Source of the DNA: a virus
Lineage: Duplodnaviria; Heunggongvirae; Uroviricota; Caudoviricetes
Direction: 5' to 3' (one strand)
DNA length: 7,457 nucleotides
IMG/VR virus record: IMGVR_UViG_2737471865_000004
Coordinates: 1 to 7,457 of that record
Made by a program: the position numbers and the translations under genes. Position 1 is the stretch's first letter; every line of letters begins with the position of its first letter. Below the pieces are notes generated by a model. The model saw nothing but the letters and a program-made list of their open reading frames with translations. It searched no databases and was not told the DNA's origin. Shown here piece by piece: positions 1 to 7,457 of this stretch.

Positions 1-93
<93 letters not shown>

Positions 94-196
94 AAACTGG
101 GGATAACGCCTTAAATGGCGAAGAAACGGTCTAAATAGGCTGATTCAAGGCATTTACGGGAGAAAAAATCGGCTCAAACATGAAGAAATGAAATGA

Positions 197-3100
197 CTGA
201 GTCAGCCGAGAAGAATTTCCCCGCTTATTCGCACCTTCCCTAATAATACAACCATTAACGGAGGAAGACAGACAATTCATGACGGGGGCATTTCCACCGG
301 TACGATAATCGACAGTGGCAATCAGGACGTTTATACAGGTGGTATCAGCAATGGAACGACAATTAAGGGTGGTAATTCACACATAAGTGGGGGGACTGCG
401 AATGGAACCATCATTGATGGTGGAGGGCAGACAGTAACAACTCAGGGGCATGTTGATGGTACAACGATAAATAAGTCCGGTTATCAGGACATCACGCAAG
501 GAAGTATTGCAACGAACACAATCATAAATGGTGGACGACAGTATGTTGAACAGAGCACAGTAGGAACAACCACCATTAAAAATGGCGGTGAGCAAAGAGT
601 ATATGAAAGCCATGCGCTGGACACGACGATTGAAGGTGGAACTCAGTCTCTGAATAATAAGTCAACGGCAAAAAATACTCAGATCTATTCTGGTGGTACG
701 CAAATTGTTGATTACACCAGCTCCTCGGATGTTATTGAAGTTTATTCCGGTGGCGTGCTTGATGTTAGTGGTGGTACGGCAACAAATGTTACCCAGCACG
801 ATGGTGCAATTTTAAAAACAAACACTAACGGTACGACGGTGAGCGGTACGAATAGTGAAGGTGCATTCTCCATCCACAATCACGTGGCAGACAATGTGTT
901 GCTGGAAAACGGTGGTCATTTAGACATAAACGCATATGGTTCGGCAAACAAGACGATTATTAAAGATAAAGGAACAATGTCAGTTTTAACGAATGCTAAA
1001 GCTGATGCGACCCGAATAGATAACGGCGGGGTAATGGATGTTACCGGAAACGCGACCAATACCATAATCAATGGTGGTACACAGAATATTAATAATCATG
1101 GTATTGCCACGGGTACCAATATCAACGGCGGAACGCAAAATATCAAGAGCGGCGGGAAAGCTGACACGACAATTATATCCTCCGGGAGCCGGCAGGTTGT
1201 TGAGAAAGATGGTACGGCAACTGGCAGCAATATTAGCGCCGGAGGCTCGCTGATTGTCTATACCGGTGGTATTGCACATGGGGTTAACCAGGAGACGGGC
1301 AGTGCTTTAGTTGCCAACACGGGCGCAGGGACTGATATTGAAGGATACAACAAGCTCTCTCACTTCACTATTACCGGAGGGGAGGCTAATTATGTTGTGC
1401 TGGAAAATACCGGCGAACTGACGGTAGTGGCTAAAACCTCGGCGAAAAATACTACCGTTGATGCTGGCGGTAAGCTGATTGTCCAGAAGGAGGCTAAAAC
1501 AGATACCACCAGACTTAATAATGGTGGCGTTCTGGAGGTTCAGGACGGTGGTGAGGCTAAGCATGTTGAGCAACAATCCGGCGGCGCATTAATTGCTTCC
1601 ACAACTTCCGGAACCCTTATCGAAGGAATCAACAGTTATGGTGATGCTTTCTACATCAGGAATTCAGAAGCTAAAAATGTAGTGCTGGAAAACGCTGGCT
1701 CATTAACAGTCGTCACTGGTTCCCGGGCAGTTGATACGATTATTAATGCCAACGGCAAAATGGATGTTTATGGAAAAGATGTTGGCACTGTACTCAATAG
1801 TGCTGGCACCCAAACAATATATGCCAGTGCCACTTCTGATAAAGCAAATATCAAAGGTGGCAAGCAAACGGTATATGGATTAGCCACTGAGGCAAATATC
1901 GAAAGTGGTGAACAAATTGTTGATGGTGGGTCAACAGAGAAAACACACATCAATGGTGGCACGCAAACCGTTCAGAATTATGGTAAGGCAATCAATACCG
2001 ATATCGTCTCTGGCCTACAACAAATTATGGCAAACGGGACAGCGGAAGGTTCCATTATTAATGGGTGTTCACAGGTAGTTAATGAGGGCGGTCTGGCTGA
2101 AAACTCGGTGCTTAATGACGGCGGCACACTCGATGTGCGGGAGAAAGGCAGCGCAACGGGGATACAGCAGAGTAGCCAGGACGCTTTGGTTGCAACCACC
2201 AGGGCGACGCGGGTCACAGGAACACGCGCGGATGGCGTCGCGTTCAGCATCGAGCAGGGTGCGGCGAACAATATCCTGCTGGCAAATGGCGGCGTGTTAA
2301 CCATGGAGTCAGACACCTCTTCTGACAAAACACAGGTCAATACGGGCGGACGGGAGATCGTCAAAACAAAAGCCACTGCGACAGGCACGACGCTCACCGG
2401 CGGCGAACAAATCGTCGAGGGGGTGGCGAATGAGACAACGATTAACGACGGCGGAATACAAACAGTTTCAGCTAACGGAGAGGCAATAAAAACAAAGATC
2501 AATGAAGGCGGTACGCTGACAGTTAACGATAATGGCAAAGCGACAGATATCGTCCAGAACAGCGGTGCCGCTCTCCAGACGAGCACGGCTAACGGTATTG
2601 AAATCAGCGGTACTCACCAGTACGGCACTTTTTCCATTTCCGGCAATTTAGCGACCAATATGTTGCTGGAAAATGGCGGTAATTTATTGGTATTAGCAGG
2701 TACCGAAGCTCGCGACTCCACGGTTGGCAGCGGTGGAGCCGCCAACGGCAGTTATCGCAGCAACGGGCTGGGCGGTCACATTGAAACCGGGATGCGATTT
2801 ACCGATGGTAACTGGAACCTGACGCCGTATGCATCGTTAACGGGGGTTCACCGCTGATAACCCTGAATATCATTTATCCAATGGCATGGAATCGAAATCA
2901 GTCGATACCCGCAGTTTATATCGTGAACTGGGTGCAACGCTGAGTTACAACATGCGTCTGGGGAACGGTATGGAAGTTGAGCCGTGGCTGAAGGCGGCTG
3001 TGCGCAAAGAATTTGTCGATGATAACCGGGTGAAAGTGAATAGTGACGGTAATTTCGTCAATGATTTGTCGGGCAGACGTGGAATATACCAGGCAGGTAT

Positions 3101-3212
3101 TAAAGCCTCATTCAGCAGTACGTTAAGCGGGCATCTTGGGGTGGGGTATAGCCATGGTGCCGGTGTGGAATCCCCGTGGAACGGGGTAGCTGGTGTGAAC
3201 TGGTCGTTCTGA
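197..3212 (+). pseudogene. ypjA: Type Va (AIDA-I/Ag43-like) autotransporter adhesin remnant, ypjA-like; 5'-truncated and frameshifted
   Basis: One frame is open from 197 (just after an in-frame TGA at 194-196) to TGA at 2855-2857, with no in-frame ATG or signal peptide; the track ORF 755-2857 begins at an internal GTG. Translation is Gly/Thr/Asn-rich with recurring ...T-I-I-N-G-G-T-Q... units typical of AIDA-type passenger repeats. ORF 2886-3212 in another frame ends ...GVNWSF, a typical beta-barrel C-terminus; that frame is open back to 2841, so the frame switch lies at about 2841-2857. Symbol is by synteny only: an autotransporter 3' end ~160 bp from the ssrA-derived att core, as I recall for ypjA next to CP4-57 in E. 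coli K-12. Confidence 0.75.
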
Positions 3213-3221
3213 CCATCAACG

Positions 3222-3245
3222 AAAAAGCCCACATCTGTGGGCTTT
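3222..3245. terminator. Bidirectional intrinsic terminator hairpin (AAAAA-GCCCAC-ATCT-GTGGGC-TTT)
   Basis: Perfect 6-bp GC-rich stem 3227-3232 / 3237-3242 with a 4-nt loop, A5 tract upstream and T3 downstream on the plus strand; on the minus strand the same hairpin is followed by TTTTT. It lies 10 bp after the autotransporter stop and ~130 bp downstream (minus-strand sense) of the ssrA 3' end. Confidence 0.5.
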
Positions 3246-3372
3246 CATGTCACCAGGAGCCGCGGCTCCTTTGCGTATCCTTTTATGTCTCTTCACCGTC
3301 TGGTCGGTGTCCTGCTGAGACTGCTAACTTCCTGTTTTTATTGGTGTTGTCCTTATACCGTCCAATCATGAT

Positions 3373-3417
3373 TGGTGGAGCTGGCGGGAGTTGAACCCGC
3401 GTCCGAAATTCCTACAT
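3373..3417 (-). other. ssrA: 3'-terminal ~45 nt of ssrA (tmRNA) including the CCA end: prophage attachment-site core at the prophage/chromosome junction
   Basis: Minus strand reads ...ATGTAGGAATTTCGGACGCGGGTTCAACTCCCGCCAGCTCCACCA, which matches the 3' end of E. coli tmRNA as I recall it. The match stops at 3417/3418 and nothing upstream resembles the rest of ssrA, so this is a fragment or att core, not a gene. Confidence 0.7.
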
Positions 3418-3533
3418 ACCATTTTGACTATAATAAAAACATATATTTATGTTTTAAAACAGTACGTTAGTGTTATTTTGTTTTTGTCGGTTTTACACAT
3501 TTTTAATGCTCTGCCGCCAAGTTGTCGCCATTG

Positions 3534-4517
3534 CTAATTCCTATCAGCAGGTAGAATTGCTGGGTAGAGCTTAGAGCAATCATTGCCATAGTCAGGGATA
3601 AAGTCCCATAGCCCTTTTGGCGTTTGGAAGACCTCAGGGCTTAAGCCAATCAGCATATAAACATGAACTAACAGCTCGCGCAATCCAGTGACCATTTGCT
3701 TTATTTGTTTTTCATCAGAGAAAGAAGTGGTGAAGGGTTTTTCTTCAATGGAGTCAAAAAGAATAAACTCATGTTTTTCATATCGATAGTCGATCCCTAA
3801 TTCTCTGCAAAGTTGGATAATATTGATTTCGAGCATTTGAAGGGAAATCACTTGGATATCATAAGAAGTCTCTTTGTTGTAACAGCTTTTAATAGCTTTG
3901 TTGATATTCTTATAATAATCTTGAACTCTACCCATAAATAATGAACTTATTTCTTTGCTATAGCCTTCTTCAATAGAGGATTTTGTAAAAATATTCATGT
4001 AAAGAATATAAGGGTGAGAAATGGAAAGTTCTATATATTTTTTTCCATCATCGTGTTCGGTAAACTCTCTACTAACGATAAATGAAGGGACGGTTTTAAA
4101 AATATCGGCATAACTCTTCTGGTGGGCATAAAATGAATCAGATTTATTTTTTGCTTTTACCAGCTCTATTTGATGCTCTGTCCTTGAAAGCTGCGTCTCT
4201 GTTTGAATGGTCCTGTGAATATTCTTAACTATAGCTCCAAGAGGTACTGAACTGGCTAGCAGCATTAGAGGGAATTTACTGATTTCGTAAAAGCGAGTAT
4301 AGCCGTGGGCACTTAACACCGGGACCTTGCCCCACCATGCGAAAATCCCAAAATAAAAGAATGATAATACTGGTATTCCGATTGATAACCAGAATAATTT
4401 CTGTTTTATAAGGTTTTGTTCATTTAATAAATACCACTTGTATTTATATGTTAAATACAATATGTATATTAACATTACAACATAGAACATAATGCCAATT
4501 GATGAATAGAGGGTCAT
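3534..4517 (-). CDS. Hypothetical membrane-anchored protein, 327 aa (two N-terminal hydrophobic helices plus ~265-aa C-terminal domain); AT-rich prophage cargo gene of unknown function
   Basis: Uninterrupted 327-codon ORF. Its ATG (4517-4515) overlaps the int stop codon (ATGA overlap). Hydrophobic segments at roughly residues 7-24 and 41-62. Hand-counted GC of sampled 60-nt stretches is ~23-28% versus ~48% in int. No catalytic motif I can recognise. Confidence 0.7.
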   Translation of the reverse strand: MTLYSSIGIMFYVVMLIYILYLTYKYKWYLLNEQNLIKQKLFWLSIGIPVLSFFYFGIFAWWGKVPVLSAHGYTRFYEISKFPLMLLASSVPLGAIVKNIHRTIQTETQLSRTEHQIELVKAKNKSDSFYAHQKSYADIFKTVPSFIVSREFTEHDDGKKYIELSISHPYILYMNIFTKSSIEEGYSKEISSLFMGRVQDYYKNINKAIKSCYNKETSYDIQVISLQMLEINIIQLCRELGIDYRYEKHEFILFDSIEEKPFTTSFSDEKQIKQMVTGLRELLVHVYMLIGLSPEVFQTPKGLWDFIPDYGNDCSKLYPAILPADRN

Positions 4518-5541
4518 GCTTTTTTCCAGTCTAATTTGTAAAGTGGATTTTTTGTTACAGCATCTTCCAAGTGATCAGGGGCAAAGTGAGCGTAAACCAT
4601 CGTCATTTTTATATCAGCATGGCCCAGAATATCGCGCAGTACCAGTATATTTCCGCCGTTCATCATAAAATGGCTGGCGAATGTATGGCGCAGTACGTGG
4701 GTGCACTGGCCCTCTGGCAGTTCGATACCGGCTCGCTTTACTGCACGCTCAAAGGATTTTCTGCATGGGGTAAATAATCTCCCCCTGTTTTTAGGTAGTT
4801 CGTCATACAGTTCTTGAGATATTGGAACGGTTCGGTTTTTTTTACCTTTGGTCTTGGTATAAGTAATGCGATATTTTGATAACTGATGCCCTTGCAGGTT
4901 TTCTGCTTCACTCCATCGGGCACCAGTTGCTAGGCATATTTTTGCAATCATCAACAGACTGGGACTCTGAGAATCAGCACAGGCATCCAGTAGGCGTTTA
5001 ATTTCTTCCGGGGTCAGGAATGCTAGTTCACCCTCAGCGATTTTAAATGTTGGCAGCCCGACGAGAGGATTTGGTGCTGACCAGTGGCCTAGTTTTTTCA
5101 ATGTGCCGAAAACCGATGATAGGTACGTTGCTCAAGATTCACCGTGCGTGGTTTTACTGGCGACATTAGTGTGCCGTCTTCGTTACGAAGGTCACCTTTT
5201 AACCGTGCTTCGCGGTATTTCGTAAAGTCTCCGGCTGTCAGTTCTGAGGCGATGGGGTCGCCTAGACCATTACAGATAATTCTAAGTTTCGCCATGAGGC
5301 GCTTGGGGTCTGCGAGTGTCTGACCATACAGGGAATACCAAAGCTCAATTAACTCTGATAGGCGTCGCCGATCATCCTTTTCACCCAACCACGGTTTTTT
5401 ATTCACTTCTTCCATTGTGAAGCTTTCAAACGCAATGGCTTCGCCTTTCGTGGCAAATTGCTTACGCACGCGCTTGCCATTGCGTCCATTGGGATAGCAC
5501 TCACACAACCATTTTCCGTTCGGCTGTTTTCTGATGGTCAT
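4514..5541 (-). pseudogene. int: Tyrosine recombinase / integrase of the P2/186 family, split by a frameshift (N-terminal part 5098-5541, C-terminal part 4514-5101)
   Basis: N-terminal ORF begins MTIRKQPNGKWLCECYPNGRNGKRVRKQF... and C-terminal ORF carries ...LATGARWSEAE..., ...HVLRHTFASHFMMNGGNILVLRDILGHADIKMTMVYAHFAP..., which recall the P2 Int catalytic region. The C-terminal frame is open only from 5131 downward after a stop at 5132-5134, and homology resumes there (…ATYLSSVFGTLKKLGHW), so a single indel at about 5123-5135 separates the halves. Combined length ~340 aa. Confidence 0.85.
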
Positions 5542-5542
5542 A

Positions 5543-6175
5543 TCAAAGGCTCTTAATGATTTTCAGTGCGCGGCCTACTACCTCAATGTCATCCAGGCCG
5601 CACTCAAACGATGAATCATCCTGATGCACTACTAATTTGTTTCCCGGGAGTCGAGTCAATTTAACAATGCTTTTTATCCCGTCGATATCGACTAACCACA
5701 TACCATTTACTAGTGGTGTTTGGTTGCGATCTATTAAATAAGAATCACCAGAAGTAGTCACCAGCAGTAGGTTGCTTGAGTTTGAGGGGAGTATGCTGCT
5801 ATCAATGATTGCTTTTCCAGCATCGATCAATAAACCACCGTTGAGAGTCGCCTTGTCAATTTCAGGAGATACTAGTTCAGAAAGAGGTATAACCTTGCTG
5901 GAGTTCACGGAATTGATATTTTTTTTGGGTTCAATGTTTGAACCTGGCTCCCCCTGTCCGGTGGTTAGCCACAGTAAAGAAACTCCTGTTTCCAAGGCGC
6001 ACTGAATCACCCACTCTGCAGGAAAACTATCTCTTAAGTATCTGTTTGCCATGGTACTTTTTGATGCGCCTAAGTGATCGCAAAGTTGCTGTCTGGACTT
6101 GAAATCATAGGCTGCCATTAGTCTATGGATAGCCTCTCTTCCCCCTGTATTCTCTCCAGCCTTTACCTGTATCAT
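5543..6175 (-). CDS. cI: CI-type lysogeny repressor (N-terminal HTH domain); occupies the 186 cI / P2 C position immediately upstream of int
   Basis: 210-codon ORF whose stop lies 1 nt before the int start, implying a cI-int operon. N-terminal region (...SRQQLCDHLGASKSTMANRYLRD...) looks like an HTH. AGGA sits about 6 nt upstream of the first ATG; an internal Met 19 codons in would give 191 aa. Confidence 0.65.
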   Translation of the reverse strand: MIQVKAGENTGGREAIHRLMAAYDFKSRQQLCDHLGASKSTMANRYLRDSFPAEWVIQCALETGVSLLWLTTGQGEPGSNIEPKKNINSVNSSKVIPLSELVSPEIDKATLNGGLLIDAGKAIIDSSILPSNSSNLLLVTTSGDSYLIDRNQTPLVNGMWLVDIDGIKSIVKLTRLPGNKLVVHQDDSSFECGLDDIEVVGRALKIIKSL

Positions 6176-6192
6176 TTTTTAATCCTGTTGGC

Positions 6193-6239
6193 GTATCAAA
6201 TATTGGATCGTAGTATCTCGATGTATCAAATATTGAATC
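6193..6239. promoter_or_regulatory. Two direct copies of a 17-bp operator-like element (GTATCAAATATTGGATC / GTATCAAATATTGAATC) in the repressor-Cox/Apl intergenic switch region
   Basis: Copies at 6193-6209 and 6223-6239 are 16/17 identical with starts 30 bp apart; each contains the palindromic core AATATT, and a third GTATC half-site sits at 6213-6217. They lie between divergent regulatory genes where operators are expected. Promoter -35/-10 elements could not be assigned with confidence. Confidence 0.35.
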
Positions 6240-6294
6240 AAGTAAAACGAGATAAAACGACGTAAACCAAACCTTAATCGGGAGATACTGCACT

Positions 6295-6537
6295 ATGAGC
6301 ACTGATATTTCAATTCGTGTACCAAAAGAGATGGCTACGCCTGCAGAGTTCGCGGAATGGGAAGGTATCTCCCGCGGCTCCGTGTATCAAAAAATTCACC
6401 ATGGTCAGCTTGCTAAATACATGGTCAAGAAAGAAAAAAACAAAGGCCGCGTAAGCCTGCGTTATTTAATGTACAAAACCGATCAGGTCCGTGAATCCCT
6501 CGGTCATTCCAACTTCCGCGTCATTGTTGGTAAGTAA
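6295..6537 (+). CDS. Small HTH regulator, Cox/Apl-like (excisionase / lytic-switch protein), 80 aa
   Basis: First rightward gene of the switch, in the same position as 186 apl / P2 cox. The segment ...TPAEFAEWEGISRGSVYQKIHHGQL... resembles the HTH region of P2 Cox as I recall it. Confidence 0.5.
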   Translation: MSTDISIRVPKEMATPAEFAEWEGISRGSVYQKIHHGQLAKYMVKKEKNKGRVSLRYLMYKTDQVRESLGHSNFRVIVGK

Positions 6538-6569
6538 GTTCAATTATGAGAACTTTCTAAGGGGGTAGC

Positions 6570-7079
6570 ATGTTTGATTATAAGATTTCCAAACACCCGC
6601 ATTTTGATGAAGCCTGTAGAGCTTTTGCACTTCGTCACAATATGGCGAAGCTGGCAGAACGTGCAGGAATGAATGTCCAGACTTTGCGAAACAAACTCAA
6701 CCCAGATCAACCGCATCAGCTAAATGCGCCAGAAATCTGGCTGCTTACCGATCTGACTGAAGATTCAACGCTGATAGATGGTTTTCTGGCACAGATTCAC
6801 TGCCTGCCATGTGTACCGATTAATGAGGTAGCAAAAGAGAAACTGCCGCATTACGTCATGAGTGCAACCGCAGAGATCGGGCGTGTTGCTGCAGGTGCGG
6901 TATCTGGAGATGTAAAAACCAGTGCAGGTCGTCGTGATGCTATCAGCAGCATTAACTCTGTAACACGACTGATGGCGCTGGCTGCTGTTTCATTGCAGGC
7001 CCGTTTACAGGCTAACCCTGCGATGGTGAGTGCAGTTGATACCGTGACTGGCCTCGGTGCTTCATTCGGTTTGCTGTGA
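6570..7079 (+). CDS. cII: CII-like lysogeny-establishment transcriptional activator (phage 186 CII family), 169 aa
   Basis: Strong RBS AAGGGGG about 4 nt before the ATG. Same position (second rightward gene) and same length as 186 CII as I recall; N-terminal HTH-like segment ...NMAKLAERAGMNVQTLRNKLNP... Confidence 0.65.
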   Translation: MFDYKISKHPHFDEACRAFALRHNMAKLAERAGMNVQTLRNKLNPDQPHQLNAPEIWLLTDLTEDSTLIDGFLAQIHCLPCVPINEVAKEKLPHYVMSATAEIGRVAAGAVSGDVKTSAGRRDAISSINSVTRLMALAAVSLQARLQANPAMVSAVDTVTGLGASFGLL

Positions 7080-7086
7080 GGTGCTT

Positions 7087-7383
7087 ATGCTGAAGAAAGA
7101 ACCATCATTTGCATCGCTGCTGGTAAAACAAAGCCCGGCAATGCACTACGGTCACGGCTGGATCATGGGTGAGGATGGGAAACGCTGGCATCCATGTCAT
7201 TCACAAGATGAATTGCTGTCTGAATTGACCACGAGGAAACGGAGAAAGTCAAAATGTATGCAGCGGAAAGTGAAGTGGTTTATCAGTTTCGTTACAGAGG
7301 GGAGAGTTATTCAGTACCTGAAGATGATTTGCTCTGTTGTTATCCGTCGTTGTCGGGCGATGGCAGTTACTTTTTCACGCTAA
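7087..7383 (+). CDS. Hypothetical phage early protein (position of 186 fil/dhr-type genes); start assigned to the ATG at 7087 rather than the track start at 7057
   Basis: GAGG lies 5 nt upstream of the ATG at 7087. The C-terminal third of the translation is unusually Cys/Arg-rich, so the true extent is uncertain (see findings). Confidence 0.3.
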   Translation: MLKKEPSFASLLVKQSPAMHYGHGWIMGEDGKRWHPCHSQDELLSELTTRKRRKSKCMQRKVKWFISFVTEGRVIQYLKMICSVVIRRCRAMAVTFSR

Positions 7384-7457
7384 GGAAGGTGCGAACAAGT
7401 CCCTGATATGAGATCATGTTTGTCATCTGGAGCCATGGAACAGGGTTCATCATGAGT

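Follow-up and report, generated by a model that had tools for sequence, protein, structure and literature searches.

The stretch of DNA analysed here (7,457 nucleotides, positions 1 to 7,457 of the IMG/VR virus record IMGVR_UViG_2737471865_000004, hereafter the window) is Escherichia coli chromosome together with the left end of a 186/Fels-2-type prophage of the P2 family. An earlier, sequence-only reading had placed a 186-like phage at ssrA, rightly as shown by the ssrA fragment, the gene order and the comparison with strain SCU-106, which is 99.8% identical over 7 kb and in which the prophage is complete (~32 kb). Between the ssrA junction and the stop codon of the integrase gene int lies a block of low guanine-cytosine (GC) content, 3418-4520. 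This block almost certainly consists of two joined parts, the native P' arm of the phage attachment site (attP) at 3418-3531 and a foreign accessory gene at 3534-4517, called cargo below. The feature is an ordinary hotspot cargo gene whose family is undescribed. The elements concerned are the following.

3373-3417, minus strand: 45-nt 3' fragment of ssrA (transfer-messenger RNA, tmRNA), the att core copy at the int-proximal junction (Rfam tmRNA match)
3418-3531, no strand: P' arm of an attP of Fels-2/186 type, 30% GC, intact (comparison with relatives)
3512-3530, plus strand: tandem Int arm-type sites, TGCCGCCA at 3512-3519 and TGTCGCCA at 3523-3530, 11 bp from start to start
3451-3505, minus strand: candidate operators of the excisionase Apl, TAAAAC-like hexamers at 3451, 3470, 3480, 3490 and 3500, four of them in 10-bp phase
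6243-6268, plus strand: candidate Apl operators at pR-pL, three TAAAAC/TAAACC repeats with 10-bp spacing between cI and apl (shared hexamer)
3534-4517, minus strand: cargo gene, 984 bp, 35% GC, encoding a predicted inner-membrane protein of 327 residues (open reading frame, ORF; WP_052521740.1, hypothetical, in SCU-106)
4514-5541, minus strand: int, tyrosine integrase (Pfam Int_N and Phage_integrase on its two ORFs)

The sequence-only reading had claimed a sharp compositional break running from the att core boundary to the int stop, on hand counts of about 28%, 23% and 48% GC. These counts were reproduced exactly (28.3% in 3961-4020, 23.3% in 4381-4440 and 48.3% in 5161-5220), and the break was borne out by the sliding profile and by direct counts, with 34.6% GC in 3418-4520 versus 47.1% in the remaining window (binomial z = -8.3). 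The phage genes at 4518-7457 reached 45.7%. Among all 1103-nt stretches of the window, the one of lowest GC content starts at 3406 and therefore matches the block. Both limits were as described, the left edge being the end of the ssrA 3' fragment (3417) and the right edge the int stop codon (4514-4516). The block was heterogeneous, its sliding GC profile rising up to 46% within 3501-3700. Analysed by codon position, its ORF displayed 39, 30 and 36% GC versus 54, 41-43 and 40-49% for int, and was thus lower at all three positions.

The att core has the same sequence as the 3' end of ssrA, the host gene targeted. ARAGORN detected no complete tRNA or tmRNA gene in the window, where ssrA is present as the 45-nt fragment only; in SCU-106, the far prophage end carries an intact ssrA adjoining smpB. 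Integration at ssrA is documented for Fels-2 and SopE-phi (PMC3448106). The arm next to the core was aligned with those of relatives, as the sequence-only reading had proposed, and was found conserved in the four relatives aligned (4/4); in phage Cartapus, whose attP is unbroken, arm and core are contiguous. Nothing separates int from the arm in E. coli LS45 (L002), for which the alignment with window positions 2727-3531 displayed 94.5% identity and homology restarted at 4524, so that the added DNA covers approximately 3532-4523. Of the foreign insertion into the attP arm previously suggested, the presence of foreign DNA beside int was therefore retained, and its location inside the arm was not, the segment 3418-3531 being native according to LS45.

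The arm also retained its integrase binding sites. The pair TGCCGCCA/TGTCGCCA matches the 186-type arm-site consensus published as tgccGCCActt (PMC3448106), and the same tandem pair occurs on the opposite arm in SCU-106 (L010 27104-27111 and 27115-27122), together with one additional inverted copy (L010 27075-27122 overall). At least two direct repeats of tgccGCCActt were hence found on each side of the core, and Cartapus, an isolated phage whose attP is contiguous, likewise has pairs on both sides. The distance from the core GAACCCG to the start of the int-side pair is exactly 119 nt in Cartapus, RE-2010, LS45, FLI21, AR_0017 and the window, and is the same whether the slot between int and the arm is empty or occupied. 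Fels-2, for which the record is cut inside the core, carries the tandem pair in its arm and has its int end 117 nt from the annotated core fragment. Owing to the conserved arm, its sites and their fixed offset, the prediction of a remodelled arm deprived of Int arm-type sites is refuted. As to the companion prediction, that sites for the integration host factor (IHF) may be lacking, no match to the IHF consensus WATCAANNNNTTR was found in 3373-3560 when at most one mismatch was allowed, and an exact match was present on the other arm in SCU-106 (L010 27154-27166). The cargo did not remove an IHF site, because the empty-slot relative has an arm of identical type.

At attP and likewise at pR-pL, the Apl protein of phage 186 binds to direct repeats spaced by 10-11 bp (PMC7498355). 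The phased TAAAAC-like repeats of the arm and of the pR-pL region resemble this pattern and are therefore treated as candidate Apl operators. At least four phased hexamer hits were obtained in none of 5000 shuffles of the arm (0/5000) and in none of 89 windows of the equally AT-rich cargo gene (0/89), which indicates a non-random pattern, to which Apl may bind. A 160-residue accessory ORF, annotated as a 'putative exonuclease' in Cartapus, lies between ogr and att at the opposite attP arm (SCU-106, L010 26565-27047; Cartapus, L102 895-1377); both attP arms are therefore bordered by non-core genes.

The cargo gene fills the interval between int and the arm almost to the base pair. At its start, the ATG shares bases with the int stop codon (ATGA, 4517-4514); at its end, 3 nt separate its own stop codon (3534-3536) from the arm sites. 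This accessory DNA is located between int and att within the att-delimited element, an arrangement that is contiguous in free phage genomes. Insertion of a transposon or insertion sequence was considered and rejected since no direct or inverted repeats flank 3532-4523. Most likely, cargo genes would be exchanged by recombination in the conserved flanks, namely the int 3' end and the att arm, and not by transposition. As in a moron, an extra gene of deviant composition separates otherwise adjacent sites; the autonomous promoter and terminator of morons were not found, the minus-strand scan having detected neither a promoter of its own upstream of 4517 nor a terminator past 3534.

Expression of the cargo is best considered together with the lysogeny genes that precede it and the genes of the opposite strand.

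5543-6175, minus strand: cI repressor, presumed to open the pL-cI-int-cargo transcript (Pfam Phage_CI_repr and Phage_CI_C)
6171-6199, minus strand: candidate pL promoter, TTGATA-17-AATGAT (consensus scan, 9/12 positions; pattern match only)
6295-6537, plus strand: apl (ORF and Pfam annotation of the prophage end)
6570-7079, plus strand: cII (ORF and Pfam annotation of the prophage end)

In phage 186, the lysogenic promoter pL transcribes cI and int. The candidate pL of the window is placed just upstream of cI, as in phage 186, the cI stop and the int start are 1 nt apart, and the terminator scan revealed no terminator-like site on the minus strand between 6175 and 3534. Co-transcription with int is suggested by the ATGA overlap. 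In the lysogen, transcription from pL would then reach the cargo as the final gene of a cI-int-cargo operon; translation of the cargo would be coupled to that of int by the ATGA overlap, and its expression would be turned off along with pL when the phage grows lytically. In 186-like prophages of Klebsiella and Citrobacter, cI, int and cargo were observed in the same order, again with a 4-bp overlap. Between cI and apl, the 17-mer GTATCAAATATTGRATC occurs twice (6195-6211 and 6225-6241), and the two copies are probably CI operators.

The distribution of the cargo and the content of its slot were variable among relatives. The cargo ORF was present in 7 of 5426 complete E. coli genomes, and the identical protein was found on 267 contigs from E. 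coli and Salmonella. Homologous alleles occupied the same slot in FLI21 (47% protein identity) and AR_0017 (39%). The first ~320 nt (107 codons) of the latter allele (L004 3204-4265) are 92% identical to the window and the remainder is diverged, a pattern suggesting that domains have been shuffled, with a recombination breakpoint at the invariant motif NIHRTIQTE. The slot was empty in phages Fels-2, SEN8 and MLG42 and in E. coli LS45. It was occupied in the isolated phages Cartapus and RE-2010 by a gene for a 401-residue 'RES/NAD+ binding' protein (34.6% GC versus 45.3% for int), and in Klebsiella phages by one or two hypothetical genes. Both the presence and the content of the slot thus vary between close relatives.

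In a wider survey of 80 loci with a related integrase, one per species, about 20 contained a low-GC ORF (0.27-0.43) past int and on the int strand; ORFs were counted when they had at least 150 codons and started no more than ~230 nt past the int stop, and most started within ~35 nt of it. Five of these slot ORFs matched PADLOC models (PRTase_III-A, PDC-S15, PDC-S49, an Old/GajA-like protein and Aga, a nuclease associated with prokaryotic Argonaute, pAgo), and the Pfam domains FRG, KAP NTPase, TIR and HEPN were found in addition. According to a 2026 survey, the int-att interval is a minor defence hotspot of P2-like prophages, accounting for 3% of the systems (PMC13586616, NAR 2026). In one Klebsiella genome (L005 7406-12869), a P4-like satellite with integrase, Psu and Ogr/Delta genes follows in tandem directly after the end of a cargo-bearing 186-like prophage; helper and satellite therefore share one integration region.

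The cargo protein itself matched no Pfam or NCBIfam model and no PADLOC v2 model at E <= 1; other slot occupants are recognised as defence systems by PADLOC, and the occupant of the window is not. Among PHROGs, only phrog_17460, of 'unknown function', was retrieved for it, and a sequence search of the PDB returned nothing. Scans of 54 and 81 family members against Pfam and PADLOC assigned no family and gave only noise of the transmembrane type. Regarding SLATT and 2TM effectors, only isolated single-member hits were obtained (SLATT_6, 2TM_IV, PycTM and KwaA, E 1e-3 to 4e-2), which are compatible with compositional noise from transmembrane segments. A literature search with the motif IHRTIQT found no paper. 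The family is large: a word-indexed search returned 64 clusters, all from Enterobacterales and all 'hypothetical', and a profile search of 1.84 billion representatives returned 940 clusters at E <= 1e-3, 170 of them with E <= 1e-30 (clusters defined at 50% identity).

The AlphaFold2 model of the protein (predicted local distance difference test, pLDDT, 84.8) comprises helices at residues 3-25 and 40-61, a long helix at 70-141 and an alpha/beta domain at 146-312. Hydropathy analysis identified hydrophobic segments at 4-23, 41-62 and 82-98; if the three all span the membrane, the topology would probably be N-out/C-in. Just past the third segment, in a conserved juxtamembrane helix, lies a series of invariant residues (N99-I-H-R-T-I-Q-T-E107, Q109, K123, N124, D127, H132 and K134). 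Conservation within the family is divided into two regions, mean pairwise identity being 65% over residues 28-140 and 25% over residues 141-327.

Family members were found in various genomic contexts. A Providencia P2-like prophage (L097 4958-7098) carries two tandem paralogs of 348 and 365 residues, with a 4-bp overlap and a GC content of 0.26-0.28, in the main GpA-GpQ hotspot, and between its cI and int genes lies an additional ORF of 281 residues. In an island of Pseudomonas cichorii, a member accompanies genes for a reverse transcriptase, LmuB_C, an SMC-like protein, UvrD and FRG. Another lies alongside helicases in a Dickeya region resembling an integrative and conjugative element, and one in Xenorhabdus adjoins a cluster of phage head and terminase genes. 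In every context (six genera), the family genes were clearly lower in GC content than their neighbours.

Taken as a whole, the explanation combining an intact arm, an acquired slot gene, expression in the lysogen and an anti-phage role is considered likely. As to the role itself, architecture and context designate the cargo as a candidate single-protein anti-phage gene expressed in the lysogen, an interpretation towards which we lean with modest confidence. Its mode of action would be of the abortive-infection or exclusion type, the hypervariable C-terminal domain sensing the invading phage and the conserved membrane module carrying out the block. More tentatively still, the entire family may represent a widespread, undescribed single-gene anti-phage system of Proteobacteria, made of a three-helix effector module with NIHRTIQTE and a diversifying, recombination-shuffled C-terminal sensor, and spread through int-att and GpA-GpQ hotspots and defence islands, sometimes in tandem. 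Several points weigh against these proposals. No experiment and no match to a known family (PADLOC, Pfam, NCBIfam) backs the defence role, and a hotspot position is guilt by association, as such slots also hold non-defence genes of lysogenic conversion. Co-transcription of int and cargo is deduced from their spacing only, and the Shine-Dalgarno sequence upstream of the cargo ATG is weak. A family member of Pectobacterium stands alone among housekeeping genes, next to rplY. Finally, the assignment of the Apl operators uses a hexamer derived from the window itself and not the published 186 logo.

Among the other explanations, the one that survives best, while unlikely, considers the cargo as a membrane protein of lysogenic conversion, concerned with the envelope, stress tolerance or host interaction and unrelated to defence, in a slot that merely tolerates insertions. 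Conversion genes are common at prophage ends, the protein is a predicted membrane protein devoid of a catalytic-domain match, and the one homolog in a housekeeping neighbourhood would fit this role. It is opposed by the recurrence of the family in the P2 GpA-GpQ hotspot and in an island with reverse transcriptase, Lamassu, UvrD and FRG genes, by the recognised defence genes among other occupants of the slot, and by the association of a conserved module with a hypervariable domain, which is typical of immune sensor-effector proteins.

It is highly improbable that, as the sequence-only reading implied, a foreign insertion inside the attP arm destroyed or displaced the Int arm-type and IHF sites and crippled the attachment site. 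The compositional break is real and begins at the core boundary, no IHF consensus match with at most one mismatch was seen on the arm, and int is frameshifted in the window, so that the prophage copy may be immobile. However, the 114-bp arm is conserved with that of the empty-slot LS45, and its site pair fits the published consensus at a constant 119-nt offset from the core. In isolated phages (Cartapus, RE-2010 and the Klebsiella phages), this slot also contains cargo, and the arm is the same. The frameshift is a lesion of its own, which SCU-106 lacks: a 1-nt deletion near 5123, the sole indel relative to that strain, splits int into ORFs of 147 and 195 codons, and the gene is intact there (342 codons). 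The deletion may leave this prophage copy unable to excise, or it may be a sequencing error.

Equally remote is a role of the cargo as a phage life-cycle factor acting in integration or excision or in the regulation of int. The ATGA overlap would place both genes in a shared operon, such a role would explain the translational coupling to int, and the arrangement is repeated in Klebsiella and Citrobacter. The cargo is nevertheless dispensable, as Fels-2, SEN8, MLG42 and LS45 have a near-identical int and att and no such gene; moreover, unrelated proteins occupy the slot of other relatives, family members also reside far from any integrase, and the cargo is a membrane protein. The idea that the block contains no real gene, being only AT-rich non-coding arm DNA or a decayed remnant, can be dismissed. 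In its favour, the protein is annotated only as hypothetical, and few stop-free frames arise by chance in AT-rich DNA; but the exact protein occurs on 267 contigs, its 940 homologous clusters share invariant motifs, its AlphaFold2 model is confident (pLDDT 84.8), and the ORF takes up all the DNA between the int stop and a point 3 nt short of the arm sites.

For the prophage end as a whole, the compositional break is thus the mark of a cargo gene, the attachment site being undamaged. Irrespective of what the slot contains, 186-like phages that integrate at ssrA keep the same attP architecture, which can aid the delimitation of prophages and the reading of att arms. The int-att interval behaves as a cassette-like slot defined at base-pair junctions, where the stop codon of the cargo replaces that of int 3-6 nt from the arm sites. 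A family of this size that escapes the Pfam, NCBIfam and PADLOC models constitutes a good candidate for defence screening.

Beyond the att core, one further feature was identified on the chromosomal side.

755-3212, plus strand: ypjA/ehaD autotransporter pseudogene (700-residue ORF and separate 108-residue beta-barrel ORF)

In relatives, ypjA/ehaD is annotated as incomplete or frameshifted, and an IS3 element lies upstream of it in SCU-106. Between the ypjA stop and the ssrA fragment, a GC-rich hairpin (GCCCAC-AGAT/ATCT-GTGGGC, 3222-3245) has T-runs on both strands and resembles a bidirectional terminator, though it was absent from the output of the simple terminator scan. Elsewhere in the SCU-106 prophage, the main P2 hotspot, between the replication and portal genes (L010 4188-5839), contains genes for a 304-residue hypothetical protein and a HIRAN-domain protein, adjoining a DinI-like gene, and may be a second cargo module.

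Comparison with known systems shows that the attP of the window is a regular member of the Fels-2/186 type. It shares with the attP of Fels-2, SopE-phi and 186 (P2-like Peduoviridae integrating at ssrA or tRNA sites) a core formed by the ssrA 3' end, an int gene transcribed towards att, tandem tgccGCCActt sites on both arms, and the cI-int / apl-cII layout of the switch. The direct-repeat operators of the recombination directionality factor common to attP and pR-pL have candidate counterparts in the window. It differs in that the Fels-2 int stop lies directly beside the arm sites, whereas the window has a 984-bp gene in between and a frameshifted int.

Regarding the cargo protein, lactococcal AbiC and AbiP are single-protein abortive infection systems with N-terminal transmembrane helices and an extra-membrane domain of no assignable fold (PMC13064643). 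The cargo displays the same combination, as predicted from its sequence and model, and would at most work in the manner of this group; its family is hosted by Proteobacteria and not by Firmicutes, and it has three hydrophobic segments in place of one or two. Scans of 135 family members against Pfam and PADLOC revealed no Abi match, and no homology to AbiC or AbiP having been demonstrated, the cargo was not filed with them. A link to lactococcal AbiC was also sought by tblastn of two members against plasmids and dropped, as no Lactococcus record was returned. The UniRef name carried by one family member (P0165) was set aside as well; it is traceable to no model and is probably an automatic prediction.

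A parallel for the expression of the cargo is Tha, for which defence genes are embedded in the cI operon of Staphylococcus aureus prophages (PMC11087260). In both cases the gene is placed in the lysogeny operon, and hence would be expressed in the lysogen as regards the cargo. Tha differs in being an unrelated HEPN RNase from another phage family, and its antisense inhibitor gene has no counterpart seen in the window.

The closest correspondence at the level of the locus is with the int-att hotspot of P2-like prophages (PMC13586616) and with the P2/P4 hotspots (PMC9122126). The window differs in its occupant, which has no PADLOC v2 match and belongs to a family that the accessible part of the former report does not describe. 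Its position, variable occupancy and low-GC cargo are the same, and sister prophages carry recognised defence genes at this very place: the slot in the window is the published int-att hotspot.

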